DNA from: Clostridia bacterium
GTDB taxonomy: Bacteria > Bacillota > Clostridia > Christensenellales > CAG-138
Direction of reading: 5' to 3'
NCBI GenBank assembly: GCA_017619735.1
Contig: JAFZRT010000020.1
Coordinates: forward strand, 2,622 to 66,621
Length of the DNA stretch: 64,000 nt
In this document: piece after piece, positions 4,898 to 44,771 of the stretch
Layout: each line of letters starts with the position of its first letter
Position numbering within the stretch: the stretch's first letter is position 1
Made by a program: the position numbers and the translations under genes
Notes under the pieces: generated by a model
Database searches by the model: none
What the model was told of the DNA's origin: nothing
Seen by the model: only the letters and a program-made list of their open reading frames with translations

Positions 4898-4955
4898 CAA
4901 AGCTCTCCCTCCGTTAAACAAGTGATGCCAACCGACAGAATAAACCGGTTGCGTT

Positions 4956-6086: not shown

Positions 6087-6133
6087 TTTGAATGACCTTC
6101 GCCCATCTGTTGCATTTGCGGCAGTTGCCGTGT

Positions 6134-7132: not shown

Positions 7133-7162
7133 TCCTAACCTCCGAAATTTTACAACTCACGA

Positions 7163-8026: not shown

Positions 8027-8027
8027 T

Positions 8028-9167: not shown

Positions 9168-9231
9168 TGTAATCGGTCCCTGTTTGTATCAGTAAATGAT
9201 CTGTTCTCATCTGCTGCCTTGGCTACTGCAG

Positions 9232-11759: not shown

Positions 11760-11760
11760 G

Positions 11761-12672: not shown

Positions 12673-12710
12673 GTCGCCTTTTCCTTTCCAGCCGCGGCCG
12701 AAACCCGTTT

Positions 12711-13547: not shown

Positions 13548-13593
13548 ATACGTCTCCCCCCGGCGGAGATCGGTCCTCCGCCCTTTTGTTTTA

Positions 13594-14241: not shown

Positions 14242-14278
14242 TCCTTGATCCCCCCGAAGACTGTTTTTTCAGTCGATA

Positions 14279-15766
14279 TCAGTCTTTTTTCTTGCTGTCC
14301 TTGCTGCCGTAGCTGCCGTAATGGCTGTAACCGTAGCGGCTGTACCCGTAACGGCTGTAACCGTAGCGGCCGTAGCCGTACTTGCCGTAGCTGCCGTAAT
14401 AGCCGTACCTGCCGGAATGTGTGCTTCCTCCGTTCAGTATGCAGCCGGCGATGTTCGCGCCGCCCGAGGTGAGCTCCTCGATGCCGTCGAATATGTAGCG
14501 GCGGCGGGCGTAATCGCACATTATGACGTACGCGACGGCGTCGACGTGCTTGACGAGTATCATGGCGTCGACGAGCACCGCGGAGGGAGGCGTGTCGAGT
14601 ATGACGACGTCCGCACGTTCCTTGAGCTGTTCGATGAGACGGCTCATCTCCTCGCTGCCGAGTATCTCGACCAGGCGGGACGGCGTATCGGCGCCGGGCA
14701 TGAGGAAGAGGCCGGTGGATTCGTCGTTGTGCTTGACCTCGCAGAGCGCTTCGTCGATCGTCGCTTCGCCCTTCAGCACGGCGACGAGGCCGGGATAGCT
14801 TTCTTCGATGTGGAATATCTTGCCGGATGAGGGGTTCCTGAGGTCGCAGTCGACGAGAATGACCTTCTTGCCCTTCAGCGCCATGGATATCGCGAGGTTC
14901 GCGGAAACGGTGGATTTGCCCTCGCCCGCGACGGAGCTCGTTACCATGAGCACCTTACCGCCCGCCATGCGGCGTTCGAGCCTCGTCCTTATGAGGCGCA
15001 TGGACTCAACGTAGTCGCCCTTGTCGTTGTCGGTGAGTATGTTGATCTCCATCCTTGTATTCTTGCTGCGCTTTTTCCTGCTGCAGACGGGCAGTGTGCC
15101 GAGGCAGGGAACGTTGACGAGATCCCTGAGCTCCGACTCGCTGCGGACCGTCCTCGACAGCGCGGCCCTTACTACGACTATCGCAAGGCCTATCGCAAGT
15201 CCGATGAGCGCGGCGTTCCTTACAGAGCCCCTTATGACCGCCGTGCGGCCGGTATCCTGGGGAATGCCGCTCTCGTCGATGACGGTGAGCTCCGCCTGAC
15301 CGACGACGTACTGCGCTACCTCGGGGTAGTTCTTGAGCACCGACTGGAGGATGTTATAGGCAGTCTCGGCCTTGGAGGCGGTGGCGCTTATCGTAAGAAG
15401 GTTGGTTCCCTTGATGTTCTTCGCCGAAATGGTGCCCGGCACGCTCCTGGTGCCGAGGTCGGAGGCGATGACGTCGGAGAGGGCGCCGCTCGTCAGTATG
15501 TAAGGGAATATGAGGCCCATCTGCTCGGCCGTGTTGCGGTTGGCGTAGGTGCCGCCGTTTACCAACTCGACCGATACCGTGGCGTCTGCGACGTACCTCG
15601 GAGTATATGTCGTCGTCACCCGGTAGTAGGCGAACGCTACCGCAGCCGCGGTTATAAGCGCGACCAGGGGCCACATCCTTTTGAGGCTGTGGAGAAAATC
15701 CCTCAGGAACGCAAACAGGTCGACGCCCTTTACTTCCTGATTCTCAGTGGATACTTTTTCGCTCAT
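14279..15766 (-). CDS. Fused Wzz-type chain-length determinant / BY-tyrosine kinase (CpsC-CpsD fusion), copy B
   Basis: N-terminal Wzz-like domain with TM helices. Walker A VTSSVAGEGKSTVSANLA, Walker A' ILVDCDLRNP, Walker B VVILDTPP. The C-terminal tail carries 14 Tyr. Confidence 0.85.
   Translation of the reverse strand: MSEKVSTENQEVKGVDLFAFLRDFLHSLKRMWPLVALITAAAVAFAYYRVTTTYTPRYVADATVSVELVNGGTYANRNTAEQMGLIFPYILTSGALSDVIASDLGTRSVPGTISAKNIKGTNLLTISATASKAETAYNILQSVLKNYPEVAQYVVGQAELTVIDESGIPQDTGRTAVIRGSVRNAALIGLAIGLAIVVVRAALSRTVRSESELRDLVNVPCLGTLPVCSRKKRSKNTRMEINILTDNDKGDYVESMRLIRTRLERRMAGGKVLMVTSSVAGEGKSTVSANLAISMALKGKKVILVDCDLRNPSSGKIFHIEESYPGLVAVLKGEATIDEALCEVKHNDESTGLFLMPGADTPSRLVEILGSEEMSRLIEQLKERADVVILDTPPSAVLVDAMILVKHVDAVAYVIMCDYARRRYIFDGIEELTSGGANIAGCILNGGSTHSGRYGYYGSYGKYGYGRYGYSRYGYSRYGYSHYGSYGSKDSKKKD
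14303..14413 (-). repeat. Coding tandem repeat (15-nt and 9-nt periodicity) for the Tyr-rich tail of kinase B
   Basis: The plus strand reads gctgtaaccgtagcggctgtacccgtaacggctgtaaccgtagcggccgtagccgta... It encodes RYGYYGSYGKYGYGRYGYSRYGYSRYGYSHYGSYGS. Confidence 0.9.
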
Positions 15767-15778
15767 ATCCGTCCCCCA

Positions 15779-17314
15779 TCACTTGGCGCTGTCCTTTTTG
15801 GACTGTTCGCCGTAATGTCCGTAGTAGCCGTAGTTGCCGTAGTGTCCGTAATTGCCGTACTTGCCGTATTTGCCGTAGCGGCCGTACCTGCCGTAGTTGC
15901 CGTAATGACCGTACCTGCCGTATCCGCCGTAGCCGACGACCGTCCTCCTCTCGCCCGGGAGCGCGCGCACCTGGTTCAGTACGCAGCCCTCGAACTCGGC
16001 GCTGCAGTTGCGCAGCGAGTCAATGGCGTCGTTGATATCGGGGGCCAGTATGGTATCGTACTTGACGACCAGTATCGAGAGGTCGGAAAGATCGGCCATG
16101 ACCTCCGCGTCGGCCATGAGCGACATGGGCGGCGAGTCGATGATCACGTATTCGTACTTCGATTTCGCCTCGTCGATGAGGTGGCTCATCGCCGCGGAGG
16201 ATACTATATCGGTGGAGTTGGAATAGTTCCTGTCGTTGAGGAGAAGGTGTATGTCGCGCTTCTCGTCGAAGTATATGGCCTCGTCGAGCGTCAGACCGCC
16301 CGTGAGGAACTCGGGCATGCGGGCGTTCTCCTCCTCGCCCTTTTCGAGGAACAGGCTGTTAAGGGTCGGGCGGCGGAGGTCGCCGTCGATCAGCAGCACG
16401 CTGTGCGCCTGCTGTGCGAGCGACAGAGCGAGGTTTGCGGAGACAGTCGATTTGCCCTCGTGCTCCTGCACGCTGGTAACGAGTATCACCTTCGCCCCGC
16501 GGTGCTTCGCCTGCGCGGCTACGAGCGCCGCGACCTTCTTGTTCCTTTCGACGAATTCGAACTTCGCGTCCAGCTCGGTGATGAGGAGCTTCTTCTTTTT
16601 CCTGCTGAACAGGCTCTTCAGGGACTTGCTGCCGTTGTAGTAGAACATGCCGAGGGTATGCGCGTCGAGCTTCTCCTCCATGTCCTTTTCGCTCTTTATG
16701 GTGTCCTTCCTGTAGGAGAGGAACGCGAACACCGCCGCGAAGGCGAGGCCCGCTATCACCGCGGCCTTTACCGTCTGTCTGCGGGAGGATACCGCAATAT
16801 CCGACTTGGTCGGGACCGTCGGCTCCTGCAGGACCTCCATGACCATGTCGGTCGAGACGTACCCCGCGAGGTCGGCGACGTTTTTCATGACCGAGCGTAT
16901 TATCTTATACGTGTTCTCCGGGGTGTCGGAGGTCACGCGGAGCGTCATGAGGTTGGTGTCGCTTATGACCTTCGCGCTCATGGTCGCGTTGAAGCTGTCG
17001 ACGTTAAGATCGCGGCAGACCTTCTTTTTGAGCAGATTGCTGTTGAGTATGTTGGAGTAGCTCGTGGCCATCGTGGACGCCGCGGACAGATTGCTGTACG
17101 CGTAGTTGCCGGACGTCCTCGACGTGACGACGAACATCGCTTTGGTCGAATACGTGCTCTGTATCTTCGACCGCACCGACATATTGACTATGAGGCCCAC
17201 GGCGATCGCGCCGAGCGCGATGACCCACGCGTTCCTTAACAGGTCCCTGATTATGCTGTACAGATCGAGCTTTTCGAGGAGCGTTGAGGTTTCCTGTTTC
17301 GTTTCCATACTCAA
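15779..17314 (-). CDS. Fused Wzz-type chain-length determinant / BY-tyrosine kinase, copy A
   Basis: Wzz-like N-domain with TM helices. Walker A VTSVQEHEGKSTVSANLA, A' LLIDGDLRRP, B YVIIDSPP. The C-terminal tail carries 15 Tyr. Confidence 0.85.
   Translation of the reverse strand: MSMETKQETSTLLEKLDLYSIIRDLLRNAWVIALGAIAVGLIVNMSVRSKIQSTYSTKAMFVVTSRTSGNYAYSNLSAASTMATSYSNILNSNLLKKKVCRDLNVDSFNATMSAKVISDTNLMTLRVTSDTPENTYKIIRSVMKNVADLAGYVSTDMVMEVLQEPTVPTKSDIAVSSRRQTVKAAVIAGLAFAAVFAFLSYRKDTIKSEKDMEEKLDAHTLGMFYYNGSKSLKSLFSRKKKKLLITELDAKFEFVERNKKVAALVAAQAKHRGAKVILVTSVQEHEGKSTVSANLALSLAQQAHSVLLIDGDLRRPTLNSLFLEKGEEENARMPEFLTGGLTLDEAIYFDEKRDIHLLLNDRNYSNSTDIVSSAAMSHLIDEAKSKYEYVIIDSPPMSLMADAEVMADLSDLSILVVKYDTILAPDINDAIDSLRNCSAEFEGCVLNQVRALPGERRTVVGYGGYGRYGHYGNYGRYGRYGKYGKYGNYGHYGNYGYYGHYGEQSKKDSAK
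15809..15934 (-). repeat. Coding 9-nt tandem repeat for the (Y-G-x)n tail of kinase A
   Basis: The plus strand reads gccgtaNNN repeated about 14 times (gccgtaatgtccgtagtagccgtagttgccgtagtgtccgtaattgccgtacttgccgtatttgccgtagcg...). It encodes GYGGYGRYGHYGNYGRYGRYGKYGKYGNYGHYGNYGYYGHYG. Confidence 0.9.
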
Positions 17315-18174
17315 TCCTCCACTATCACTATGAGGGTCGCCGTGCCGAGCGCCTGGCGCTCCGCATCGAAGAGCTGATATGTCACGGTGTATGTCCCGGG
17401 CACCTTAAGGTTCATGCCGCCCTCGAACACCGCGATATCCGTATCGGGGTTGAAGCGCGTGTTCGCGAATGGCGTTGTCTTGCCGGCGGACCATACGCCG
17501 TTGAGGAAGCTGCGCAGATCGATCCTGCCGCCGCACGGGACGTACGTGACGTATTCCTTGAGGGAGGGCGACGGCTGGCTGTAGGTCGCGTAATCCTCCA
17601 TGCTTATCGTGAGCTCGAGCACGGCGCTGTCGCCGCAGCTGTTGGTGACCTGGATATTGACCTTCTGAACGGAGGAGGTCTCGCTTGTGGCGGTGGTCTT
17701 GCCGAAGCTGATCTTCATCTGCTGAGTGAGGTTGCCGTCGATGCAGTCCTCGGCGAAAATGTGCTCGAGATAATCGATGCCTGTCGTGCCCGTGACGTAG
17801 CGGAGCGGCTGATAGATGTGGAAATGGGGCGAAACGTAATCGAGATACGTGACCTCGCGCACGTAGGTGCCGACGTTCCGGCTGTTGTCGAACGCGGCGT
17901 AGTTGACGTGCCTCGTGCCCTTCGAAATGAACTTGCTCTTCGAGACCACGACGAGGGAATCCGTAACGTCCCCGTCGATGTTATCCCTCGCTGTCATGCC
18001 TTCGAGCAGATCCTCATCCGTTGAGGATACCGTGACGACTATCGAATCGCTTTCGGCATTAATGACCGGCGCATGATAATCGAGCGTCAGACGGTGACGG
18101 ATGTAGGTGTAGGAGAATACCGCCGCCACCACGACGAAAAACAGCACTATCAGTATTCTTAGTCTTCTGATCAT
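17311..18174 (-). CDS. Membrane-anchored hypothetical protein with Ig-like (DUF5011-like) ectodomains
   Basis: N-terminal TM helix (ILIVLFFVVVAAVFSY), then beta-rich repeats with ARDNIDGDVTDSLVV, which resembles bacterial Ig-like domains. An ATGA overlap links it to kinase A. Confidence 0.45.
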   Translation of the reverse strand: MIRRLRILIVLFFVVVAAVFSYTYIRHRLTLDYHAPVINAESDSIVVTVSSTDEDLLEGMTARDNIDGDVTDSLVVVSKSKFISKGTRHVNYAAFDNSRNVGTYVREVTYLDYVSPHFHIYQPLRYVTGTTGIDYLEHIFAEDCIDGNLTQQMKISFGKTTATSETSSVQKVNIQVTNSCGDSAVLELTISMEDYATYSQPSPSLKEYVTYVPCGGRIDLRSFLNGVWSAGKTTPFANTRFNPDTDIAVFEGGMNLKVPGTYTVTYQLFDAERQALGTATLIVIVED

Positions 18175-18192
18175 TCTTCCCTCCGCTGCGCG

Positions 18193-18942
18193 TCAGTAGA
18201 TCGGTATGGGCTCGTAGCCCAGGAGCTCCCTGCCACGGAGTATCCTCGACGGGTTCTCCTCAAGGAGCAGTTTCATGTATTCCTCGCCGAAATTGTCGGT
18301 CAGATATTCCCGTATCTCGGCCATGTGCGTCGTGCGTTCCATGGGGCTGTGCGCGTCGCTCGCGATGCAGGCGCAGAGCCCGTGATCGAGCAGCAGCTCC
18401 GCGATGCGCATTGGCCTCGGCCCGAAGCGCCCCAGCAGGCTGCCCTTGTTCACCTGCAGGCCGTAGCCCCTCGTGCACCAGTCGTACGCGATCTCCGGTA
18501 TCTCCTGTACGAACACGTACCGCTCCGGATGGGCGATTATCGGGCTGAAGCCCGCGGCGGAGCATTTGCGCAGTATCCTGTCGCAGTAATCGGGATCCTC
18601 CGTGAACGCAAACTCGGTCAGGAAGTACTTCGTCCCGTTGAGCGTCCACACCCTGCCCTCCTCGAGCAGGCGGGGCGTCTCCTCCGTTGCGAACACCTCC
18701 GCTCCGCGGCAGAGCTCCACCGGTATCCCGGCGCGCTCCGCCCCCCGGACGAGGCTTTGGAATCTCTCCTCCAGCTCTGGCGACGCGAGATTCATGTATT
18801 CGCCCGGGATATTGCAGTGCGGGGTCGCGACTATGGTCTTCACCCCGCTCTCGGCCGCCATGGTCAGGAGCGCGAGCGAATCCTCCATGGTCTCGGAGCC
18901 GTCGTCTATTCCGGGTATAATATGTGCGTGGATATCGATCAT
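18193..18942 (-). CDS. cpsB: CpsB/CapC-type PHP-family protein-tyrosine phosphatase
   Basis: MIDIHAHIIPGIDDGS ... ATPHCN ... IAHPERY ... ASDAH. These are the conserved metal-binding motifs of CpsB/YwqE. Confidence 0.9.
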   Translation of the reverse strand: MIDIHAHIIPGIDDGSETMEDSLALLTMAAESGVKTIVATPHCNIPGEYMNLASPELEERFQSLVRGAERAGIPVELCRGAEVFATEETPRLLEEGRVWTLNGTKYFLTEFAFTEDPDYCDRILRKCSAAGFSPIIAHPERYVFVQEIPEIAYDWCTRGYGLQVNKGSLLGRFGPRPMRIAELLLDHGLCACIASDAHSPMERTTHMAEIREYLTDNFGEEYMKLLLEENPSRILRGRELLGYEPIPIY

Positions 18943-21041: not shown

Positions 21042-21140
21042 GGCATAGTATAAGGTTTACTATGCCATGGTATTGGTAAAAATCCGCGGCAATGTGAAAA
21101 AACCTTGATGAAACAGATATTCCCAAAGGAGGATAGAACA

Positions 21141-24100
21141 TTGAAAAAGCGTTTTGCGAAGTTCCTTGCTCTGGCCCTCGTGCTGGTCATGGTCCTTTCC
21201 GCCATCCCCTTCTCTGCCATCGCGCAGGGGTTCGTGAATGACGGCAACGAGACCACCGCCATCGGCGATCTCTGGAGCAAACTCAGGGGCGGTCTGAATG
21301 ATTTCTTCAGGCCCCGTCCCACGACCCCGCCCACGACCGATGGAAGAAGCTTCACCGGTGTTACGGAGAGCGGCCTTACCGTCAACGTCGACGCTCCCGC
21401 CGGCGCTTTCATGAACGGTACGACCATGACCGTCCGCGAGGTCGCGAATATGCAGGCAGTGCAGGATGCCGTCGATAACACCGATGGCGTATCCGGTACC
21501 GTCCTTGCTGCCGTCGATATCACCTTCATGCTTCGCGGCAGGGAAGTCCAGCCCACGAAGGATATCACCGTCAGCATCACCTCCGACGCTCTCGCTTCCG
21601 TGAGCAACCCCTCCGTCGTCCATATCGACGCGAGCGCGGATGAGCTCGGCGGCGAAGAGGACGCGGATCTTGTAGCCAACGTCAAGTCCGGCAACAGCAC
21701 CGTCACCTTCGAGGCGGACAGCTTCTCCATCTACGCGGTCATCGACGACGGCCAGGAGGGCGATCTCGCTCGTTTGGAGATCAATTTCTATAAGCCCTCC
21801 TATTCTGAAGGTCAGATGAGCTACGAACTCGTTGCGACTGTCTACGTCAAGAACTCCGATCAGCTCCTCGGCGACGGCGAACGTGTAGAAACCGTCCAGT
21901 ATATCGAGGATATCGTGTACGATCCCGGCGTGGGCGGCACCCTCGGCGATGGACTGCTCTTCGGCGGCTGGACCATCGACTCTGCCGACGCCAACCCGAC
22001 AGGCAGCACCAACTACGGCAAAAACTATGACGTCGACACCACGGTCTACACCATTCCCGGTATCTGCAAGTATCTCGCGCAGAAGAAGGTCGGCCATATT
22101 GCAGAGGGCGACAAGCTCGATATCTACGCTCTCATCTACAAGGTATTCGACGTGACCTATAAGGACTCGCACGACATCGTTCTTGCGTCCGACATAGTCA
22201 TGATGCCCCTTAACGCTACCTCCGGTTCCTTCACCATCAAGGAGACCTACAAGCCCAACGATCAGATCACGAACTTCGAAGGCTGGCAGGTGGCGGAAGG
22301 CGCGAGCAATATCTCCAACGCCAGCAAACCCGCGCCCTACCCCCAGGGCACGACCATGGATCTCTCCGGCGACGTCGTGTTCTCCACCGTGCTTGTCAGC
22401 GGCCACTGGCTCGTTTACGAGGAGAACGGCTACGGCGCGACCTATAATGCGCCCGCGTTCATCAAGTCCAACGAGCTGACCCATGCGCCCGCCCTTGAGA
22501 TGACCCGTCCCGGCTACACCTTCGGCGGCTGGTACACCGACGCCGCCTGCACCGCCGGCAACGAGTATCCTTTCAATCTGCCCCTTGAAGACCGTCTCAC
22601 CGTCTACGCGAAGTGGACCATGGCTACCACCGCCGACTATACGGTCATCATCTGGAAGGAGAACATCGACTGCGACGGCTACGATTACGTGGGATCCATC
22701 TCCATGAACGGCACTACGCAGTCCCCCATCAGCCCGATCACGAAGGTCAACGATACCACCGCGAGGGTAGACGGCACGAGCTACAGCTACACCGGCTTCG
22801 AAGTCGGTGACTATGACTCCAACGTCACCATAAAGCCCGCCGGCGGTTCCGTGCTCAATGTTTACTTTGACCGTATCGAGTATACGCTGACCTTTAAGGT
22901 TACCAATATTGCTTATACTTATAATGGTAGTGGATATGTAGATGCTCCTGTCGGTACCACTGCAGTAACCAATAGTAGTAACATTAATACGCTCAACAGC
23001 AACCAGAGAACGATCTCCGGATATCAAGTGTCGTATTACGGTAGTAATTATTATAACCGAACATATTGCGTAAAGGTTGGCTCTTCCTGGTACCCGATAA
23101 CTTCTAGAGGTTATAACGTTTACAATGCGAGCAACATTACTGCGGTTCCCGTTCCCGGCAACCCTGTTGTAAAAACAATCACTGCGGCTTTCGAGCAAGA
23201 TATTTCCGCTGAGTTCCCGATTGTTGCCGAAAACGGTGTTATCTATCCCACGGGAACCCGTTGGAACCCCGATAGTGGCTTGACTGTTGACGGCACAACG
23301 TACTTTACTCACGATGTCGTTGTCGCTTTTATCGATAAGATGACTCCCGGCGATATGGAGTTTGAGATAAGCGACCCGGGCAGTAGAACAGAAAAGACGA
23401 TGGTCTACTGGGTCGAAACCATCAACAACACTCCAACGGAAGGAAAAGCCACAAAAACATACAAGGGTGTTTTGTATGAAGAATACAAAACGGTACGTGC
23501 TCATTATACCGGCGTTACGATAGAGGACTATATTGAGCTTAACGGGTTCTCTCATTTGGAAGCTGACCAGTCCCTCGGCTATACATCCAACGGAACAACC
23601 TATTATGGCACGTCGTCCGGTGCAGCAACTGAGGTCAATTTCTACTACACTCGCAATCAGTATAGCATCATCTACTTTGACGGCGTCTACTACAACAGGG
23701 ACGGTATCATGACTGAAGACATGCCCGAGGATCAGGGCGAGCTCCATGTCGATAGCAGTATCTATTTCAACGCCGACATCAGCAGCTACGGTGAGGGCGG
23801 CGTCCATTACTATACCCCCACCTGCCCCCCCGGTTTCATTTTCGACGGCTGGTACCTCAACAAGGAGTGCTCTGATGGAGCCGAAGCCGACTTCGACAAG
23901 ATGCCCCTCGGCGGCATGAAGGTCTACGCCAAGTGGAGACTGATCGAATACCGCGTGTTCCTGAAGCCCAACGCCCTCCTGAACGGCACAAGAGACAACA
24001 CTCTTGACTGGGGTAAAGATGATCAGGCGACCAACTTCCGTATCGACTACAACAAAAAGGTCTCCTGCCCCACCGGTCTGAGGTACGGCTTCGAGTTCGG

Positions 24101-25976
24101 CGGCTGGTATACCGATCCCGACTTCAACTACATGTTCGACGACTCCACCAAGCTCACCGACTCCACCGTCCCCGAAACCCCGGTCTACGACAAGACGACC
24201 GACTTCACCGACGGTGCAGGCAACGTTGAGATGGATAAGTGGGGCCTCATCCCCGACGGAGCAACGCCCATCAACAAGGACGTTGACCGTTACTGGATCA
24301 CCCGCAAGCTCAACCTCTACGCCCGCTGGAGCAAGATCATCCCCGGCGCGAGCGGCGTTGGTCTCATCTACAACGCCAACGGCGGCACCAACGCCCCCGA
24401 TGACACCCGCCTCTACAAGGACAACGTCAAGGCGATCGCTCAGGCGGCTTCCACCGCACCCAATACGAACCAGCAGTTCCTGTACTGGGTAGTGCAGAAG
24501 TATGACACCGCGACCGGTACGTACGTAGACGCCATGAAGAGCGACGCCGGAGATCTCGACGAAGGCGAAGAGGACGGCCTCCTCATCGTCTATCCCGGCG
24601 AGCGTTTCAGCGTATTGCTCGACCTTGCCAAGCAGGAGCCCAGACTTGACGATAACGGGCAGCAGATGATCGACTACACCGATCCCGAGCATCCCCAGCC
24701 CCTCTGGGTCTACACCGTGGAGCTCAAGGCGATGTACGGCCCGAAGGCCGCTCCCACCCCGACCCATATCTCCTGGTTCTCCGGTCTGTACGACATCGAC
24801 GGCGGTTCGTTCGAGCTTGATTCCGTAACCCATCCCGGCACCGCCATCCAGGCCAACGCCACGACCGGCGGCATCGGCTGGGTCATCACCAACCCCAACC
24901 TGCAGATCAACCAGGCCGTTGATATCATGGCTGCCGACACCTACTCCATACCCGGCTACAAGTTCATCGGCTGGGCGAGGATCAACAACGAGACCGGCTA
25001 TCCCGGCAATAACGATCCCACCAGCATCACCATGGACGATATGTTCCTCGAGTACAGGGACGGCAAGTTCTATGCGAAGGCAAACTCCCGCGATACCGAG
25101 TTCACCGTTGAGGTGACCAAGGTCGCCGCGGACGAGGCGCATTCCTACCATGACCTCTACGCCATGTGGGTGCCCGAATACTTCTACGTATTCCACTCCT
25201 CCACCGGCAAGCTCGAGGCCATCAAGATGCCTCACTCCCTCTCCGAGACCTGCAACCTCGTTGCCAAGGTCCCGAGTACCCACCTCTACGGCGGTTACTA
25301 CAAGACCTACGGCGGCGTAACCCTCGAGAATATCGAGGCGGCCAAGAGCGGCGCGAAGTCCGCTACCACGCACGAGATCGAAGTCACCGGCGCCGTGACC
25401 TACGACGGTTCCAACCTCAAGAACGGCACCACCCGCTTCTGGACGAAGGCAGACGCCTACGGCATGAATCCCGGCGAGACCATCGGCAGCGCGCTGCAGC
25501 CCACGGCGGAGACCGTCTACTACCTCAAGGAGGTCCCGAAGAAGTATCTTGGCGTACATGCCAGGTGGATCTACAACTGGTACTACGACAACAGGATCGA
25601 TAATCTCTATCTCCTGACCGTCGTCGACGACCTCAACTACACCTCGGTCGGCTATACCGTTGCCTCCGATGATGAGATCGCAAGGCTCGTTTCGTCCTTC
25701 ACCTTCGTTCCGACCGCGTCCAACACCGGTGCGAATGCGAAGAGGGTCAAGATCACGGCCAACGACCTCATCGGGCAGCGCGGCTACCTCGGCGTCGTGG
25801 ATGCGACCGAATACATCGAAAGCATTGTCGCAAGCGGTACTGAAGGCATCCAGCTCAACCCGTTCTGGGTCACCATCGACGGCGTTGAAGTCAACAACGT
25901 GTACTACACCTTCGGCTGCAGCGGCGGCGACACGCTCACGACTGAGAACTTCACTCACGTGGTCTGCAATCCGTAA
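21141..25976 (+). CDS. Large secreted surface protein with Listeria-Bacteroides (Flg_new / InlB B-repeat-like) repeats; no LPXTG or other obvious anchor
   Basis: I placed the start at TTG 21141, 7 nt after AAAGGAGGA. That gives the signal peptide KKRFAKFLALALVLVMVLSAIPFSAIAQG. Recurrent modules are present: GYTFGGWYTDAACT...VYAKW, GFIFDGWYLNKECS...VYAKW, GFEFGGWYTDPDF and GYKFIGWARI. The C-terminus ends ...FTHVVCNP. Confidence 0.85.
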   Translation: MKKRFAKFLALALVLVMVLSAIPFSAIAQGFVNDGNETTAIGDLWSKLRGGLNDFFRPRPTTPPTTDGRSFTGVTESGLTVNVDAPAGAFMNGTTMTVREVANMQAVQDAVDNTDGVSGTVLAAVDITFMLRGREVQPTKDITVSITSDALASVSNPSVVHIDASADELGGEEDADLVANVKSGNSTVTFEADSFSIYAVIDDGQEGDLARLEINFYKPSYSEGQMSYELVATVYVKNSDQLLGDGERVETVQYIEDIVYDPGVGGTLGDGLLFGGWTIDSADANPTGSTNYGKNYDVDTTVYTIPGICKYLAQKKVGHIAEGDKLDIYALIYKVFDVTYKDSHDIVLASDIVMMPLNATSGSFTIKETYKPNDQITNFEGWQVAEGASNISNASKPAPYPQGTTMDLSGDVVFSTVLVSGHWLVYEENGYGATYNAPAFIKSNELTHAPALEMTRPGYTFGGWYTDAACTAGNEYPFNLPLEDRLTVYAKWTMATTADYTVIIWKENIDCDGYDYVGSISMNGTTQSPISPITKVNDTTARVDGTSYSYTGFEVGDYDSNVTIKPAGGSVLNVYFDRIEYTLTFKVTNIAYTYNGSGYVDAPVGTTAVTNSSNINTLNSNQRTISGYQVSYYGSNYYNRTYCVKVGSSWYPITSRGYNVYNASNITAVPVPGNPVVKTITAAFEQDISAEFPIVAENGVIYPTGTRWNPDSGLTVDGTTYFTHDVVVAFIDKMTPGDMEFEISDPGSRTEKTMVYWVETINNTPTEGKATKTYKGVLYEEYKTVRAHYTGVTIEDYIELNGFSHLEADQSLGYTSNGTTYYGTSSGAATEVNFYYTRNQYSIIYFDGVYYNRDGIMTEDMPEDQGELHVDSSIYFNADISSYGEGGVHYYTPTCPPGFIFDGWYLNKECSDGAEADFDKMPLGGMKVYAKWRLIEYRVFLKPNALLNGTRDNTLDWGKDDQATNFRIDYNKKVSCPTGLRYGFEFGGWYTDPDFNYMFDDSTKLTDSTVPETPVYDKTTDFTDGAGNVEMDKWGLIPDGATPINKDVDRYWITRKLNLYARWSKIIPGASGVGLIYNANGGTNAPDDTRLYKDNVKAIAQAASTAPNTNQQFLYWVVQKYDTATGTYVDAMKSDAGDLDEGEEDGLLIVYPGERFSVLLDLAKQEPRLDDNGQQMIDYTDPEHPQPLWVYTVELKAMYGPKAAPTPTHISWFSGLYDIDGGSFELDSVTHPGTAIQANATTGGIGWVITNPNLQINQAVDIMAADTYSIPGYKFIGWARINNETGYPGNNDPTSITMDDMFLEYRDGKFYAKANSRDTEFTVEVTKVAADEAHSYHDLYAMWVPEYFYVFHSSTGKLEAIKMPHSLSETCNLVAKVPSTHLYGGYYKTYGGVTLENIEAAKSGAKSATTHEIEVTGAVTYDGSNLKNGTTRFWTKADAYGMNPGETIGSALQPTAETVYYLKEVPKKYLGVHARWIYNWYYDNRIDNLYLLTVVDDLNYTSVGYTVASDDEIARLVSSFTFVPTASNTGANAKRVKITANDLIGQRGYLGVVDATEYIESIVASGTEGIQLNPFWVTIDGVEVNNVYYTFGCSGGDTLTTENFTHVVCNP

Positions 25977-25996
25977 GTAAGGCCCAAGCATCATTT

Positions 25997-26025
25997 CCTC
26001 CGGATGGGTCTCCCCCATCCGGAGG
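25997..26025 (+). promoter_or_regulatory. Perfect 12-bp GC-rich hairpin (cctccggatggg/cccatccggagg) overlapping the SD of the next gene
   Basis: Arms at 25997-26008 and 26014-26025 with a 5-nt loop and no U-tract. The 3' arm contains GGAGG, the only SD-like sequence upstream of ATG 26041. Confidence 0.6.
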
Positions 26026-26040
26026 GGTGAACGATAATCA

Positions 26041-26364
26041 ATGAAAAACACTACTAAAAAGATCATACTGCTTATCGCGATAATCCTTGTCGCTGCGGCG
26101 ATAATCACGGTTATCATCCACCCGTGGAAGCCCGCGGATCCCGGATCTGCCGATCCTACGCATCCCGCGGCGGATCCCACACCGGCCCCCACTCAGGCGG
26201 CCGACGATCCGGACGAAACTCCCGCTCAAACGGCGGAAGCAACGCCGGACGGTTTCACTCCCTCCCCCACCGAAGGCGGAGAGGATGACCCGGATGATGA
26301 GCCCGTGGTTACGGAGGAATTCGTAGTTGACCTCACCGAAGGTCAAGGCATAGGCGGTTTTTGA
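26041..26364 (+). CDS. Small membrane-anchored protein with an acidic Pro/Thr/Asp-rich ectodomain
   Basis: N-terminal TM helix (IILLIAIILVAAAIITVII), then PADPGSADPTHPAADPTPAPTQAADDPDETPAQTAEATPDGFTPSPTEGGEDDPDDEP. Confidence 0.6.
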   Translation: MKNTTKKIILLIAIILVAAAIITVIIHPWKPADPGSADPTHPAADPTPAPTQAADDPDETPAQTAEATPDGFTPSPTEGGEDDPDDEPVVTEEFVVDLTEGQGIGGF

Positions 26365-39545: not shown

Positions 39546-40641
39546 ATGATCATCATGGATGAGTACCGTCAGCAGCTGACGGCTACCATTGCTGCCCTCA
39601 AGCAGGCGGGTGAATCCCTTTAAGGTCGCTGAGCTTGCAGAGGAAAAGAAACAGCTTGAAGAGGAAATGGGCAGGGACGGCTTCTGGGACGACGTCGAGA
39701 ACGCCAACAAGATCAACCAGCGCATGAAGTCCATATCCGGCAAGCTCGACAAATACGACAAGCTCAACGCCATGTGCGAGGATTTCGAAGTCCTCATGGA
39801 CATGGGCGAGGAGGACGAGGACATGGCGAACGAAGTCCCCGAGGCCTTTGAAAAGCTCAACAAGGCCGTGGAGGATTTCCATCTTGCTGCGCTCCTGACC
39901 GGCCCCTACGACAGCTATAACGCGGTGCTGTCGCTCCACGCCGGCGCGGGCGGCACCGAGGCGCAGGATTGGGTCAGCATGCTCTACCGCATGTACGTCC
40001 GCTACTGCGAAAGATGCGGCTACACCGTCAAGGAGCTCGACCTTCTGGATGGCGAGGAAGCCGGCATCAAGTCCGTCACATTCGAGGTGCAGGGCGAAAA
40101 CGCCTACGGCTACCTGAAGGCCGAGAAGGGCGTGCACCGTCTCGTCCGCATCAGCCCCTTCGACTCCTCGGGAAGACGCCACACATCATTCGCGTCCCTC
40201 GACGTGACGCCGATACTCACCGAGGACGACAACTCGATCGAGATAAAGCCCGAGGATATCCGCATCGACACCTATCGTTCCGGCGGCGCCGGCGGTCAGA
40301 ACGTCAACAAGGTCTCCTCCGCCATCCGCATAACCCACTTTGCGACGGGCATAGTCGTCCAGTGTCAGAACGAAAGGAGCCAGCTCCAGAACAAGGAAGT
40401 CGCGATGCGCATACTGAAGGGCAAACTCCTTGAGATCAAGGAGCGCGAGCGCATGGAGAAGATGGCGGACATAAAGGGCGAGCTCAAGAAGATCGAATGG
40501 GGCAGTCAGATCCGCTCATACGTCTTCCAGCCCTACACCATGGTCAAGGATCACCGCACCGGCTGCGAGACGGGCAATATCCAGGCAGTCATGGACGGCG
40601 AGATAGACGAGTTCATACATCAGTATCTGATAAAGATGTGA
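39546..40641 (+). CDS. prfB: Peptide chain release factor 2, made by a programmed +1 frameshift at 39618-39624
   Basis: Frame 0 reads ATG 39546 ... CTT TAA (stop at 39621-39623). The +1 frame continues AAG GTC GCT... into the 350-aa ORF carrying the SPF (RISPFDSSGRR) and GGQ (SGGAGGQNVNK) motifs. RBS AAAGGAAG lies upstream of the ATG. Confidence 0.9.
39618..39624 (+). other. RF2 autoregulatory +1 frameshift site CTT TAA G
   Basis: A CUU-U slippery codon followed by an in-frame stop, with the SD-like GGCGGGTG a few nt upstream. This matches the classical prfB motif, with UAA here instead of UGA. Confidence 0.85.
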
Positions 40642-40670
40642 GAAAAACCAACTGAACCTCGGAGGATACT

Positions 40671-42488
40671 ATGCAGGCAATCATACTTGCTGCCGGAATG
40701 GGCAAACGCCTTAAAGAATTGACAAAGGACAACACCAAGTGCATGGTGAAGGTCAACGGGGTCACATTGATCGACCGCATGCTCCACCAAATCGAAAAAT
40801 ACCGTCTGTCAAGGATAGTGATCGTTGTTGGCTATGAGGGGCAAAAACTTATTGACTATATCGGTACACTTGATATCAAAACGCCGATCGTTTATGTGAA
40901 TAATCCCATTTATGACGTTACCAACAACATCTACTCCCTGGCTTTAGCCAAGGACTGGCTGGCAAAGGAGGATACTCTGCTGTTCGAGTCCGATCTGATC
41001 TTTGAGGATTCAGTACTCGAGATGCTCGTCTCCGACCCGCGCGAATCACTTGCCTTGGTCGACAAATACGAATCATGGATGGACGGTACTTGCGTCAAGC
41101 TTGCCGACGACGATTCGATTTCCACGTTCGTTCCGGGTAAAAAACTTGATTTCAGCGAGACCGACGAGTATTTCAAGACCGTCAACATCTATAAGTTCAG
41201 CAAGCATTTTTCCGAGACCCATTACGTGCCTTTCCTCGTAGCATATCAATCCGCTTTGGGAAGAAACGAATATTACGAGCAGGTGCTTCGCGTAATCACC
41301 ATGCTCGACGATTCCGAGCTGAAAGCCAAACGTTTGTCCGGGCAAAGATGGTATGAGATTGACGATATCCAGGATCTTGATATAGCCGAATCAATTTTCA
41401 CTCCCGACGAGGATGAGCGCGTCAACCTCCTTCAGGGGAGATACGGGGGATATTGGCGTTATCCTAAACTGATGGATTTCTGTTATCTTGTCAATCCCTA
41501 TTTTCCTCCGAAACGGATGGTCGACGAGATGGCCGCCAATTTCGACACACTTCTGCGTCAGTACCCCAGCGGGATGAAAGTCAACTCCCTTCTTGCCGCA
41601 ATGAATTTCAACGTACACCAGGATAATATAGTGGTCGGCAACGGAGCTGCTGAACTGATCAAGTCCCTTGTTGAGAGTTTCACCGGGAAAACAGGAATTA
41701 TACGGCCTACATTTGAGGAGTATTCACATAGGTACGATCCCGAGAAACTCGTCGTGTACTGGCCCGATAATGATGACTATGCCTATTCTGCTCAGGATTT
41801 GATCGATTTCTTCGGTGATAAAGGCATCGACAACCTGATCCTCATCAACCCGGACAACCCCTCCGGCAACTATCTTGTCAAATCAGATGTCATTCGACTT
41901 ATCAGATGGACTGCCGAAAATGGTATTGTTCTGGTTTTGGACGAGTCCTTTGCCGATTTCGCGGACGAGCCCGATAACTCGTTCTTCGATCAAAAGCTGC
42001 TTGAAGCGAATCCACACCTATATGTAATGAAAAGCATTTCCAAATCGTTCGGTGTCCCCGGTTTAAGGCTCGGGGTGCTTGCCTCGGGAAATACAAATGC
42101 TATCGCACGCATGAAAAAGGACATCGCGATCTGGAACATCAACTCTTTCGCTGAGTTTTATCTGCAGATCGCTCAAAAATACAGGAAGGATTACTCTGGT
42201 GCTTTGGAGCTCTTCCGCGAGGAGCGAGCCCGATTCATTACGGAGCTTTCAAAGATACCCGGGCTTAGAGTTGTTCCCACTCAGGCAAATTACGTGATGG
42301 CTGAAGTCACAAACGGCATTAGCGCAGCTGAACTGACCAGAGTTTTGATTGCAAAACACAGTATCCTGATCAAAAATCTGAATTCAAAGATGGACAAAAA
42401 GAATCGACAGTTCATCAGGATTGCGGTAAGGGACGAATCAGACAACAATATGCTTATTTCTTCAATAAGAGAATCGTTTTCACTTTGA
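40671..42488 (+). CDS. Bifunctional LicC-like nucleotidyl(cytidylyl)transferase / class I-II PLP enzyme (HisC/CobD-like aminotransferase or decarboxylase)
   Basis: N-terminus MQAIILAAGMGKRLKELTKDNTKCMVKVNG (G-x-G-x-R-L NTP-transferase motif). C-terminal half has LINPDNPSGNY and SISKSFGVPGLRLGV (PLP-Lys motif of the HisC/CobD subgroup). The gene is AT-rich. Confidence 0.75.
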   Translation: MQAIILAAGMGKRLKELTKDNTKCMVKVNGVTLIDRMLHQIEKYRLSRIVIVVGYEGQKLIDYIGTLDIKTPIVYVNNPIYDVTNNIYSLALAKDWLAKEDTLLFESDLIFEDSVLEMLVSDPRESLALVDKYESWMDGTCVKLADDDSISTFVPGKKLDFSETDEYFKTVNIYKFSKHFSETHYVPFLVAYQSALGRNEYYEQVLRVITMLDDSELKAKRLSGQRWYEIDDIQDLDIAESIFTPDEDERVNLLQGRYGGYWRYPKLMDFCYLVNPYFPPKRMVDEMAANFDTLLRQYPSGMKVNSLLAAMNFNVHQDNIVVGNGAAELIKSLVESFTGKTGIIRPTFEEYSHRYDPEKLVVYWPDNDDYAYSAQDLIDFFGDKGIDNLILINPDNPSGNYLVKSDVIRLIRWTAENGIVLVLDESFADFADEPDNSFFDQKLLEANPHLYVMKSISKSFGVPGLRLGVLASGNTNAIARMKKDIAIWNINSFAEFYLQIAQKYRKDYSGALELFREERARFITELSKIPGLRVVPTQANYVMAEVTNGISAAELTRVLIAKHSILIKNLNSKMDKKNRQFIRIAVRDESDNNMLISSIRESFSL

Positions 42489-42522
42489 ATTGGCATGTCA
42501 TGATGTTAACGGGGATAATGAA

Positions 42523-43581
42523 ATGCAGATTATTAAACGGATAATAATACGGATCCTCATGATCCCGCAGAGATTGGTTGGCTTTATAAAGAGTATTAGC
42601 AAAGCAATGGAAAACTCATATTGGCCTGACGAACCGCACAAATCCAGATTCAAGCAGATCTGCGAATTGATTAACTGGAGGTTCAAGAACAAGGAAATAA
42701 ATGAGTTTTATACTCTTTATGGTTTCGATCGCAAAAACGAATCAATAGATCAGACCTCATACATTGACTACCGCTCATTTGCCGGTTTGCGTTGGAATGG
42801 AAATAAAAACGGTACTAATTATTCTCAAGTAGCTCTCCTGCGCGACAAGTATCTGTTTTTTAAGTTCATGTCCCTTAACCGGCTTCCGGTCCCGAAGGTC
42901 TTTGCTGAAAGGATTAGCGGTTGCTTTTTTGACAGCGATCTCAATCAAACGACGGTCGATTCTATTCTATCTCACGGAAGCTTCTTTGCCAAGTCACTTG
43001 ACGGTGAATGTGGCGAGAACGTTAAGCTCATTGAAGATCACTCCGCTTTCTCTCAGTACCTGTCTTCTGTGGAAAAAAGCGATCTTGTATTTCAGGATCG
43101 CGTCGTTCAGCATCATGAAATGAGCAGACTGAACCCCCATTCGGTCAACACCATCCGACTCGTTACAGTAAACAAAAACAATGATGTTCAGGTTTTCGGA
43201 GCATTGCTTAGGGTAGGCACTGTTGACAGTAAAGAAAGGGACAACACTTCACAAGGCGGTATCGCTATCGGCATCAACCCCGACGGTTCATTGACTCCCA
43301 TAGGTATCCGAAAGCCGAAGTATGGCGGCAGGATCGAAAAGCATCCCGATACCGGCGTTGTATTCTCGTCGTTTACGATACCTTACTATAAAGAAGCTGT
43401 AGAGCTGGCCTGCCGCGCTCACAGAGCATTTTACAGAGTCGGGTCTATCGGATGGGATATTGCTATTACTCCGGACGGGCCGGTATTCATTGAGGGAAAC
43501 GACAACTGGGAAATACAGTCATTTCAAGCTCTCTACGGCGGGTTAAGAGACCGCTGCAATGAGATGATGAGTGTCAAATAA
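42523..43581 (+). CDS. TupA-like (sugar-transfer-associated) ATP-grasp ligase, second copy
   Basis: FFAKSLDGECGENVKLIED ... NTSQGGIAIGINPDGSL ... IGWDIAITPDGPVFIEGNDNWEIQ. The start is uncertain (TTG 42490 or ATG 42523). Confidence 0.65.
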   Translation: MQIIKRIIIRILMIPQRLVGFIKSISKAMENSYWPDEPHKSRFKQICELINWRFKNKEINEFYTLYGFDRKNESIDQTSYIDYRSFAGLRWNGNKNGTNYSQVALLRDKYLFFKFMSLNRLPVPKVFAERISGCFFDSDLNQTTVDSILSHGSFFAKSLDGECGENVKLIEDHSAFSQYLSSVEKSDLVFQDRVVQHHEMSRLNPHSVNTIRLVTVNKNNDVQVFGALLRVGTVDSKERDNTSQGGIAIGINPDGSLTPIGIRKPKYGGRIEKHPDTGVVFSSFTIPYYKEAVELACRAHRAFYRVGSIGWDIAITPDGPVFIEGNDNWEIQSFQALYGGLRDRCNEMMSVK

Positions 43582-43607
43582 ACTATTATTATTTCGGAGA
43601 AACAGTT

Positions 43608-44570
43608 ATGAAGCTAATTACATTCAGCGATATTCAGTCTTTATCCATTCCCCCACGGACATGTTACGACTGGGTTGAAAAGGCCCTCCTCAGCAAGAGC
43701 AATTCTCTGCTGCCCCCCAAGATACACATGAACATGGACGGGAACATCTTTTGCAATGTTATGCCGAGCATCGTCAATCTTGACGGTTCCTCCTGGTGCG
43801 GCATCAAGACAGTAACCAGATATCCGCAGAACACTCCGTCTCTCGAAAGCAGGCTTCTGCTGCTTGATGCCGAGCGAGGAGAATACCTTGCGCTTATGGA
43901 CGCTACATGGATTACTGCGATGCGTACCGGAGCGGTCGCCGCTCATTCCATTATGACGTTTGCGAATCCCGGTTTCAAAACTATCGGAATGATCGGTCTC
44001 GGAAATACTGCAAGAGCTGCGTTGGAGATCCTTTCCTCGGTTGTCAACGGAGATCTCGATATCAAGCTCCTGCGGTACAAGGATCAGGCAGAGCAATTCA
44101 ATGACAGGTTTAGCGGCAATAATAAACTGCACTTCAGCATTGTCGACGATGTGAAAAACGTCGTTAAAGGGTCAGAGGTCGTTGTTTCCTGTGCGACCTA
44201 TTTTGCCGATGATATTTGCAGCGATGATTGCTTTGACGAAGGTGTGTTGGTCGTTCCCGTTCACACCCGTGGATTTACAAATTGCGATTTGTTCTTTGAC
44301 AAGGTCTTTGCGGATGACAGGGGCCATGTCGACCATTTTAAAAACTTCGCAAAGTTCAAATACTTTGCGGAAGTCAGCGACGTTATCTGCGGTAAAGCGA
44401 ATGGACGCACGAGCAACAAAGAGAGGATTCTCGCATATAACATCGGCATATCTTTACATGACGTCTATTTTGCGGCAGAGATATTCAATATGCTTAAAAA
44501 CCGAAGAGATGTGTTCGAATCGTTACTTGATCTCGAGTTTAATGAGCCGAAAGCCAAGTTCTGGGTATGA
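43608..44570 (+). CDS. Ornithine cyclodeaminase / mu-crystallin family NAD-dependent enzyme
   Basis: GIKTVTRYPQN ... DATWITAMRTGAVAAHS ... IGMIGLGNTARAALE (Rossmann) is typical of the OCD_Mu_crystall family. Confidence 0.8.
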   Translation: MKLITFSDIQSLSIPPRTCYDWVEKALLSKSNSLLPPKIHMNMDGNIFCNVMPSIVNLDGSSWCGIKTVTRYPQNTPSLESRLLLLDAERGEYLALMDATWITAMRTGAVAAHSIMTFANPGFKTIGMIGLGNTARAALEILSSVVNGDLDIKLLRYKDQAEQFNDRFSGNNKLHFSIVDDVKNVVKGSEVVVSCATYFADDICSDDCFDEGVLVVPVHTRGFTNCDLFFDKVFADDRGHVDHFKNFAKFKYFAEVSDVICGKANGRTSNKERILAYNIGISLHDVYFAAEIFNMLKNRRDVFESLLDLEFNEPKAKFWV

Positions 44571-44646
44571 AACAAAAACAATAACACGCTTTGAGAGTAC
44601 ATTTGCATACGTAGATGCAGGTTTTCGTGGCACTCAGTTAAAAAGC

Positions 44647-44688
44647 AAAAAAGATCCGAGGATATTCCTGATATCCACGGATCTTTTT
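44647..44688 (+). terminator. Bidirectional intrinsic terminator closing the low-GC island
   Basis: aaaaaagatccgaggatat-tcctg-atatccacggatcttttt, with one mismatch and A/T runs on both sides. Confidence 0.75.
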
Positions 44689-44771
44689 CTCTGTCGATGC
44701 CCGGCGGCAACCCGCATCTTCTTTTTGAATATGCTGTCCCGGGCGGTATTTTTCATGCTGCGGGGCGGTCT

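Follow-up and report, generated by a model that had tools for sequence, protein, structure and literature searches.

What are three low-GC genes, directly behind the housekeeping pair argS-prfB in a Clostridia bacterium, likely to contribute to the cell? The genes lie on contig JAFZRT010000020.1 (assembly GCA_017619735.1) in a 64-kb stretch, referred to here as the window, in whose numbering all coordinates are given unless another contig or locus is named. Together they form the trio, encoding a bifunctional fusion enzyme, an ATP-grasp ligase (AG1) and an enzyme of the ornithine cyclodeaminase (OCD)/mu-crystallin family. The trio most likely makes an activated, tailored phospho-aminoalcohol that a LicD-family phosphotransferase encoded in the same window would attach to a surface polysaccharide. 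The three genes would then be the donor-synthesis and tailoring arm of the LicD decoration of an exopolysaccharide (EPS) locus, detached from it and placed outside, and the probability of this whole explanation is put at about 0.7. The observations behind it are the domain identities, the insertion of the genes, the conserved gene neighborhoods, the linkage to LicD and glycan genes and a complementary arrangement in the metagenome-assembled genome (MAG) RUI376. The substrates, the order of the cytidylyl, OCD and ATP-grasp steps and the exact reactions of OCD and ATP-grasp are predicted from the comparison of sequences.

Genes and enzymes behind prfB

In the list of open reading frames (ORFs), three co-directional ORFs follow prfB, at 40671-42488 (605 aa), 42490/42523-43581 and 43608-44570 (320 aa). 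Reading of the sequence confirmed that they begin 29 nt after prfB, with the prfB stop codon at 40639-40641 and the ATG of the fusion gene at 40671, and that a ribosome-binding site of their own, GGAGGA at 40661-40666 on the plus strand, lies 4 nt upstream of this ATG. The OCD gene likewise has its own ribosome-binding site, GGAG at 43596-43599, eight bases upstream of its start. The bidirectional intrinsic terminator proposed downstream of the genes was recovered as a hairpin at 44648-44688 with A and T runs on its flanks, folding on the two strands with ΔG of -22.2 and -24.3 kcal/mol (z scores of -4.8 and -4.2); none of 200 shuffles folded as well, and the hairpin corresponds to inverted repeat I4, which is 94% complementary. 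A simple terminator scan did not report it, because the stem carries a bulge, and it was found by direct folding. Since the terminator and promoter scans gave no hairpin and no promoter-like site in the 29 nt after prfB, read-through from the argS-prfB operon into the trio is likely.

The fusion gene (40671-42488, plus strand) was assigned from Pfam, NCBIfam and PDB matches. Pfam identified NTP_transf_3 (PF12804, 39 bits, cut-off 27), NTP_transferase (PF00483, 34.9 bits, cut-off 21.2) and Aminotran_1_2 (97 bits), in line with the original prediction of a LicC-like domain fused to a CobD/HisC-like pyridoxal phosphate (PLP) enzyme. The cytidylyltransferase covers approximately residues 1-245 and the CobD-like PLP enzyme approximately residues 260-600. 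The N-terminal part matched 6pd1, the PntC domain of Tde1415 (PntC-AEPT, 6e-13), pneumococcal LicC (1jyk, 5e-10) and the Thermotoga nucleotidyltransferase 4jd0, which we take to be an inositol-phosphate cytidylyltransferase; an NCBIfam model related to that activity also matched. Each of these matches is a cytidylyltransferase that joins CTP to a phospho-alcohol or phosphonate. The stretch LAAGMGKRL at residues 6-14 carries the G-x-G-x-R-L nucleotide-binding signature of LicC/PntC-type enzymes, and the domain is a predicted LicC/PntC-like phospho-alcohol cytidylyltransferase.

The C-terminal domain matched best the PDB entry 6oux, labeled 'threonine phosphate decarboxylase-like' (9e-42) and presumably the phosphoserine decarboxylase SMUL_1544, and further CobD (1lc5, 8e-30) and 3fkd (7.5e-22). 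Among HisC-labeled chains, 3ftb, which we assume to be a Clostridium structural-genomics entry, matched at 2.7e-32 and the next, 8bj1, at 2e-19, so that apart from 3ftb both 6oux and CobD ranked ahead of them and the domain groups with structures of Thr-P/Ser-P decarboxylase type. The motif KSISKSFG (KSISKSFGVPGLRLG) aligned with KSLSKDFG of 6oux and RSLTKFYA of 1lc5 and contains the S-x-x-K PLP-lysine of fold-type-I class I/II domains. Both equivalog models scored below their cut-offs, CobD (TIGR01140) at 166.3 bits against 290.55 and HisC (TIGR01141) at 146.4 bits against 276.55. Motifs gave no separation of decarboxylases from aminotransferases, and it is the ranking of PDB and NCBIfam matches alone that favors a decarboxylase. 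More than 8000 homologs have the same architecture, with the PLP domain always fused to a LicC/PntC-type cytidylyltransferase; the best 120 of them are 72-84% identical and come from MAGs named Spirochaetales, Erysipelotrichaceae and Firmicutes. Public labels of the homologs read 'aminotransferase class I/II' and 'histidinol-phosphate/aromatic aminotransferase/cobyric acid decarboxylase-like'.

The third gene (43608-44570, plus strand) encodes a 320-aa NAD(P)-dependent enzyme of the OCD/mu-crystallin family, as had been proposed, with 95 bits to OCD_Mu_crystall (PF02423) against a cut-off of 24. The best PDB matches to the OCD profile were SbnB (4m54, 2e-25), Pyr2C reductase (6t3e) and archaeal alanine dehydrogenase (AlaDH, 1omo). 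The Rossmann motif GLGNTA and the family's substrate-carboxylate residues, Lys in GIK67 and Arg in AMR106TGA, are invariant in the orthologs and align with the same three enzymes. Basic residues invariant specifically in this clade are R71, H219, R221, H240 and R267. None of the equivalogs for ornithine cyclodeaminase, SbnB and archaeal AlaDH reached its cut-off, the best scores being, in descending order, 94 (cut-off 417), 80 (409) and 67 (327) bits. In metagenomes, OCD orthologs 47-65% identical to the window's enzyme adjoin LicD genes and genes for CDP/CMP donors.

The middle gene encodes a carboxylate-amine ligase of the ATPgrasp_ST family (PF14397, 170.2 bits, cut-off 31.4), which replaces the earlier assignment as TupA-like: at E ≤ 0.01, ATPgrasp_TupA (PF14305) was absent and only PF14397 and a weak RimK match were obtained. 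Formally, the ORF begins with TTG at 42490; public annotations start at ATG 42523, behind a GGGGA, and 35 aligned homologs keep this Met almost without exception. The start moved in this way is the most probable one on alignment grounds and gives a gene at 42523-43581 on the plus strand with 352 aa. A sequence search of solved structures returned spurious TPR matches only. The AlphaFold2 (AF2) model (pLDDT 92.5) matched ATP-grasp ligase folds with a probability of 1.00, the nearest being ArgX/LysX, RimK and Ddl with TM scores of 0.45-0.6; these are generic carboxylate-amine ligases, matched at the level of the fold only, and thus give no indication of the substrate. The N-terminus (42523-42610) is a long basic and hydrophobic helix, MQIIKRIIIRILMIPQRLVGFIKSISK, with residues 2-28 helical in the AF2 model; it is a possible membrane anchor, in keeping with action on a lipid-linked intermediate.

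Insertion site and exopolysaccharide locus

The shift in composition noted in the original prediction was reproduced, spot counts of 23/60 and 36/60 G+C being exact. No other 3.9-kb stretch of the window is as poor in G+C as the trio region, at 0.456-0.459 against a median of 0.585. G+C at third codon positions (GC3) is 0.57 in the fusion gene, 0.51 in the ATP-grasp gene and 0.56 in the OCD gene, compared to 0.79-0.86 in argS, prfB, the K+ channel gene, pheT and other neighbors.

Insertion was tested in ArgS neighborhoods from species-representative genomes onto which the window proteins were mapped. The host belongs to a Christensenellales-like lineage of Clostridia known only from rumen and gut MAGs. 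ArgS is 85-86% identical in four representatives, and the fetched stretch reaches prfB in three of them. In the nearest, L013 (MAG RUI376; ArgS 85%, PrfB 95%), the site is empty: about 80 nt with their own terminator separate prfB from the K+ channel gene, behind which lies pheT. In L015 and L055, a 598-aa CotH/dockerin gene occupies the gap between prfB and the K+ channel gene. DNA alignments with these three lose homology at the prfB stop codon and regain it at the 3' end of the K+ channel gene. One metagenomic contig, with a fusion 83% identical to that of the window, has the order prfB-LicD-fusion-octopine-DH-CotH-...-pheT (DH, dehydrogenase); the contigs P0002 and P0003 were available as gene tables only. 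As the site is empty in L013 and holds different cargo in other relatives, the region between prfB and the K+ channel gene is a variable hotspot and the trio an insertion of foreign composition, which bears out the proposed island. The inserted segment, a low-GC cassette, runs from the prfB stop to the stop of the K+ channel gene (40642-44771). Its composition is atypical and close relatives lack it at this position, as expected of a horizontally acquired island. Marks of mobility were not seen, as the original prediction had stated: the segment holds only three ORFs, none of them an integrase or transposase, and a repeat search found chance-level short matches at its flanks; no tRNA scan was run. 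The CotH-domain secreted protein with dockerin-like repeats is found at the hotspot in L015 (13631-15427), in L055 (approximately 13570-15510) and on the P0003 contig, and the dockerin suggests cellulosome-type surface display in the host lineage.

A complete Wzy-type EPS/capsular polysaccharide locus was delimited by Pfam scans at 640-18942 on the minus strand. In the direction of transcription it starts with a CpsB phosphatase, an ORF with an Ig-like domain (17314-18174), two CpsD-like kinases and a priming Bac_transf. An HpcH-like gene, a 2-hydroxyacid dehydrogenase, a second ATPgrasp_ST (10788-11759), an AsnB-like gene, a family 4 glycosyltransferase (GT4) and LicD follow, and the locus ends with a GT2, a GT4, an unknown 346-aa gene, a GT4, EpsG and a GT2. 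The LicD-family phosphotransferase, which the original prediction did not include and which is the proposed user of the trio's product, lies at 7166-8026 on the minus strand (PF04991, 132 bits). Its GC3 is 0.49, like that of the trio, and the second ATP-grasp gene shares this foreign composition. The window thus holds a LicD for a Lic-type decoration; the functional link to the trio is drawn from the arrangement in a relative. Pfam scans showed no CDP-donor gene in the EPS locus.

Apart from itself, this LicD has its best homolog (63% identical) on the very RUI376 contig that carries the empty prfB site, immediately after a fusion-OCD pair. The RUI376 EPS locus (L175) is collinear with that of the window at 42-85% identity (CpsD 69%, Bac_transf 85%, HpcH 82%, 2-hydroxyacid dehydrogenase 75%, AsnB-like 73%, GT4 80%, LicD 63%, GT2 65% and GT4 76%). 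The two loci differ at two points. In L175, the fusion and OCD genes lie between GT4 and LicD (GT4-fusion-OCD-LicD-GT2), where in the window GT4 is directly followed by LicD; the second ATP-grasp gene is found in the window only. The module genes, LicD included, have a GC3 of about 0.49-0.57 in both genomes. In L012, the same EPS backbone genes and an ATP-grasp-containing module form one contiguous block. The strongest argument for the trio as supplier of the EPS LicD is the complementary arrangement in the window and RUI376.

Beyond this pair of genomes, trio homologs occur in polysaccharide or teichoic-acid loci, which agrees with the proposed link to a cell-surface glycan. Fusion homologs are accompanied by LicD and/or TagF-like phosphotransferases, flippases, Wzy and glycosyltransferases in every context examined, and those in glycan loci come from Spirochaetales, Erysipelotrichaceae and Clostridia. 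The order fusion-ATPgrasp_ST-OCD with LicD recurs in L010, L011, L012, L097, L098 and L100, where the ATP-grasp homologs between fusion and OCD are 44-55% identical to AG1. L102 has a second ATP-grasp gene between the first and OCD, and in L174 the trio homologs are separated by other genes and accompanied by a TagF-like one.

Metagenomes scanned with a profile of OCD orthologs yielded 80 loci, and neighborhoods were counted in the 33 where OCD is flanked on each side by 3 kb or more. The fusion or a stand-alone LicC/PntC-like nucleotidyltransferase (NTase) lies within 3 kb of OCD in 26 of the 33, and LicD within 3 kb in 19 and anywhere in the locus in 23. The commonest layouts are LicD-fusion-OCD, fusion-OCD-LicD and LicD-OCD-fusion; the form with ATP-grasp is a minority, an ortholog of the window's ATP-grasp being present in 3/33. 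Loci that lack the fusion show two other routes. In L125 and L135, OCD adjoins a complete aminoethylphosphonate route (phosphoenolpyruvate (PEP) mutase, thiamine pyrophosphate-dependent decarboxylase, class-V transaminase and winged helix-turn-helix (wHTH)-NTase), and in L155 a fusion of choline/ethanolamine kinase and NTase. The common denominator of the OCD clade is thus LicD together with any route to a cytidylyl-activated 2-aminoethyl head group, and the position of OCD beside the alternative 2-aminoethyl routes argues that the fusion product would be the phosphate-ester analogue, phosphoethanolamine.

Several other observations were made in these loci. OCD orthologs lie inside 2-aminoethylphosphonate (AEP) clusters in L135 (10001-14685), L125 (6088-14014) and L126, with a PntC-like wHTH-NTase, a class-V transaminase, a PEP mutase-cytidylyltransferase-like fusion and a phosphonopyruvate decarboxylase; those of L125 and L126 also hold an octopine-DH-family gene and LicD. 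This association is not mentioned in the PntC paper (PMC6697681). In the unrelated loci L006 (12567-14873) and L155 (10982-13461), a wHTH/NTP_transferase protein of about 300 aa is followed by an Amidohydro_3 protein beside LicD modules, and in L155 the NTase-choline/ethanolamine kinase fusion comes after this pair. L173 (5717-11202, Christensenellaceae) carries a UDP-glucose dehydrogenase, ATPgrasp_TupA, two ATPgrasp_ST and a dehydrogenase of the AlaDH/PNT family, to which carboxyethyl-ornithine synthase and saccharopine dehydrogenases belong. Three dehydrogenase families, OCD, octopine DH and AlaDH/PNT, are found beside ATPgrasp_ST in glycan loci, and by our reading each includes opine-forming enzymes. 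In L003-L005 (11846-13090, Erysipelotrichaceae), the fusion is followed by a DUF1015 protein, not by OCD or octopine DH, which may be another head-group tailoring enzyme.

The composition of the window's EPS locus is patchy and foreign. The AsnB-like amidotransferase (9235-10788), the D-2-hydroxyacid dehydrogenase (11764-12672) and the HpcH/HpaI-like aldolase (12714-13547), together with the second ATPgrasp_ST, suggest a second decoration of acyl or amide type; the block of HpcH, dehydrogenase, AsnB-like and GT4 genes recurs in L012 and L175. After the EPS locus, positions 1 to about 620 (minus strand) encode part of an ABC-2 type (Wzm/TagG-like) permease for polysaccharide or teichoic-acid export (PF01061, 52 bits), cut off by the start of the window, in which L175 also ends, and a second, ABC-transporter-dependent glycan pathway may adjoin the locus. 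At 21060-26192, two long ORFs overlap (1710 aa minus, 1623 aa plus), and the minus translation has no Pfam match.

Proposed route and competing explanations

In the proposed route, the CobD-like PLP domain would decarboxylate O-phospho-L-serine, a universal metabolite, to 2-aminoethyl phosphate (phosphoethanolamine); conversion of O-phospho-L-threonine to aminopropanol phosphate is a less likely alternative for this domain. No kinase gene is present in the trio module. The LicC/PntC-like domain would convert phosphoethanolamine and CTP to CDP-ethanolamine. OCD would make an NAD(P)(H)-dependent change to the free amino group, most likely a reductive condensation with a 2-oxo acid giving an opine-type N-(carboxyalkyl)aminoethyl phosphate, and ATPgrasp_ST would form an amide bond on the head group, at the new carboxylate or at the amine. 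LicD (7166-8026) would place the phospho-head group on one of the sugars in the EPS repeat. Precedents are a LicD-family enzyme that uses CDP-ethanolamine as phosphoethanolamine donor in vitro (PMC11982090) and PntC-AEPT, in which an NTase and a PLP enzyme are fused in an analogous way (PMC6697681).

Condensation with a 2-oxo acid is favored because of the imine reduction typical of the family, the reaction of SbnB, an alkylaminating homolog and a known substituent. Enzymes of the OCD family reduce imines next to a carboxylate, and SbnB acts on an opine-like secondary amine. The substituent 2-[(R)-1-carboxyethylamino]ethyl phosphate was reportedly found on the Proteus O14 antigen (Perepelov 1999). 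The homolog is the OCD-family enzyme CpIM1, which alkylaminates 2-oxo acids, pyruvate included (PMC8446579).

Some findings weigh against this explanation. The CobD score of the PLP domain (166 bits) is far below the cut-off with hisC close behind (146 bits), and for this reason the domain could conceivably be an aminotransferase, making, e.g., serinol phosphate. OCD and an octopine-DH-family gene occur together in L001, L125, L126 and L167, which would be hard to explain if both were opine synthases, and weakens the OCD step. Identity to the RUI376 counterparts is 68% for the window's fusion and 58% for its OCD, below the 75-85% that most of the conserved EPS genes upstream of the module reach; because of this lower similarity the trio is read as a different allele of the cassette, with an ATP-grasp gene, acquired at the prfB hotspot. 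Simple relocation of the trio from the EPS locus was rejected on these identities, the fusion being closer (75%) to Spirochaetales homologs. The window LicD is about 30-33% identical to the LicDs beside ATP-grasp-containing modules, and orthology to these was dropped as an argument in favor of the 63%-identical RUI376 ortholog beside fusion-OCD. Another LicD, or another target such as a teichoic acid or glycolipid, outside the window is possible.

The original prediction had drawn on the amidation pathway of the Campylobacter jejuni HS:2 capsule, which is documented (PMC12409886). Transferred to the trio, PLP-made ethanolamine or serinol phosphate would be ligated through its amine to the carboxylate of a uronic acid by the ATP-grasp enzyme, without transfer from CDP. 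An ATP-grasp gene is indeed present, a 45%-identical ATPgrasp_ST homolog in L173 adjoins the UDP-glucose dehydrogenase and ATPgrasp_TupA, and phosphoesterase genes after extra ATP-grasp genes in L010, L097 and L100 recall the Cj1435 phosphatase. This analogy nevertheless became quite improbable: the fused NTase and LicD speak for a CDP-activated head group transferred as a phosphodiester, the PLP domain is invariably fused to a cytidylyltransferase, a LicD or TagF-like transferase accompanies the module in the contexts examined, the core fusion-OCD-LicD of RUI376 and most loci does without ATP-grasp, and Pfam scans showed no UDP-glucose dehydrogenase in the window EPS locus. Amidation of this type could still be a side role of the ATP-grasp genes. 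The trio also seems remote from cobalamin (CobD) or histidine (HisC) metabolism with a place near prfB by chance. CobD and hisC are the best NCBIfam matches and public labels of the homologs agree with them, but both models are far below their equivalog cut-offs, the fused LicC-like NTase has no role in those pathways, and no cobalamin/cobamide or his genes were seen in any homolog context examined, nearly all of which are glycan loci. This explanation is effectively refuted.

It is also unlikely, on balance, that OCD supplies or regenerates an amino acid (alanine as an AlaDH-like enzyme, proline/pipecolate as a cyclodeaminase or diaminopropionate as an SbnB-like enzyme) for the ATP-grasp enzyme or for a transaminase-type PLP domain making serinol phosphate. 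Such a role would agree with the matches of OCD to archaeal AlaDH (TIGR02371, 80 bits; 1omo) and SbnB, with an amino-acid permease gene in the L006 module and with the co-occurrence of OCD and AEP pathways, whose transaminases use the alanine/pyruvate pair. However, the ATP-grasp that would use the amino acid is present in only 3/33 OCD loci, OCD is also found with the kinase-type route of L155, which needs no amino donor, and all OCD equivalog scores are far below cut-off. Alanine and proline are, moreover, abundant primary metabolites, and one would not normally expect a glycan cassette to carry its own enzyme for them. Synthesis of an activated and tailored head group for LicD remains the preferred explanation of the trio.

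A bolder extension of it, held only tentatively and rather doubtful as a whole, is that the LicD-associated OCD clade represents a new kind of opine synthase that couples a 2-oxo acid reductively to the amino group of 2-aminoethyl phosphate or phosphonate, cytidylyl-activated or free, and that ATPgrasp_ST extends the new carboxylate. If true, a biosynthesis would for the first time be available for head groups of the type of 2-[(1-carboxyethyl)amino]ethyl phosphate, whose chemistry has been known from the Proteus O14 antigen since 1999. The window ATPgrasp_ST would add an amine or amino acid to give a peptide-like phospho-decoration of the capsule, and the fusion would lead bacteria de novo from phosphoserine to CDP-ethanolamine without a kinase.

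Zwitterionic phospho-head groups on bacterial surface glycans, phosphocholine, phosphoethanolamine and aminoethylphosphonate among them, influence recognition by the immune system, the adsorption of phages and colonization. To our knowledge, such head groups are otherwise obtained from imported choline or ethanolamine or through the phosphonate pathway. The fusion, which has thousands of homologs at about 75% identity, would give gut and rumen Clostridia, Erysipelotrichaceae and Spirochaetales a self-sufficient supply of CDP-ethanolamine from phosphoserine; judging by its partners OCD, octopine DH and ATP-grasp, a whole family of head groups with further modifications may exist. As the comparison with RUI376 shows, a decoration module can depart from its polysaccharide locus and travel with a housekeeping operon, where locus-based prediction of serotypes or glycans would miss it.

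Comparison with known systems

The decoration as such is of a known kind, the CDP-activated phospho-head-group decoration by LicC/LicD, with PntC-AEPT as an analogue. A full-text literature search aimed at the module found no description or characterization of it, and neither the CobD-like/LicC-like fusion nor its OCD/octopine-DH/ATP-grasp partners nor its placement behind prfB turned up there. The earlier statement that the combination is uncharacterized therefore holds as far as the literature is concerned; the combination is not unique, being a recurrent and widespread module.

PntC-AEPT of Treponema denticola (Tde1415, 6pd1) has the same plan, an N-terminal LicC-like cytidylyltransferase and a C-terminal PLP enzyme that makes its substrate, with LicD-like phosphotransferases nearby, and orthologs of the window's OCD are found in AEP clusters as well. 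In contrast to its class-V AEP transaminase, the PLP domain of the trio is of fold-type-I class I/II and CobD-like. The trio lacks genes for PEP mutase and phosphonopyruvate decarboxylase, and for this reason a phosphate ester, rather than a phosphonate, is expected from it.

The CobD/SMUL_1544/Cj1436-type decarboxylases are the best sequence matches of the C-terminal domain, which keeps their PLP-lysine motif; the trio's enzyme differs from them in scoring below the equivalog cut-off, in its fusion to an NTase and in its glycan, not cobamide, context. In C. jejuni HS:2 (Cj1435-Cj1438), a CobD/HisC-like PLP enzyme also gives an aminoalcohol phosphate and an ATP-grasp enzyme takes part, although there an amide to glucuronate is formed and then dephosphorylated, whereas the NTase and LicD of the trio imply phosphodiester transfer. 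The ATP-grasp Cj1438 is TupA-like, while the trio's ligase is of the ATPgrasp_ST family and the core module contains no ATP-grasp at all.

The nearest relatives of the window's OCD are SbnB, CpIM1 and Pyr2C reductase, with which it shares the carboxylate-binding Lys and Arg; it differs in scoring below the equivalog cut-offs and in belonging to a clade defined by LicD-associated glycan contexts. The example of CpIM1 documents that the family N-alkylates amines with 2-oxo acids (PMC8446579).

Like the Lic pathway (LicA/B/C/D), which decorates glycans of Streptococcus pneumoniae and Haemophilus with phosphocholine, the proposed system combines a LicC-type domain with LicD and a zwitterionic phospho-head group. 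Neither a LicA kinase nor a LicB importer was found in the trio or among the Pfam-scanned EPS genes, the rest of the window not having been scanned. In contrast to the Lic pathway, a decarboxylation would supply the phospho-alcohol de novo, and the tailoring steps assigned to OCD and ATP-grasp have no Lic counterpart.

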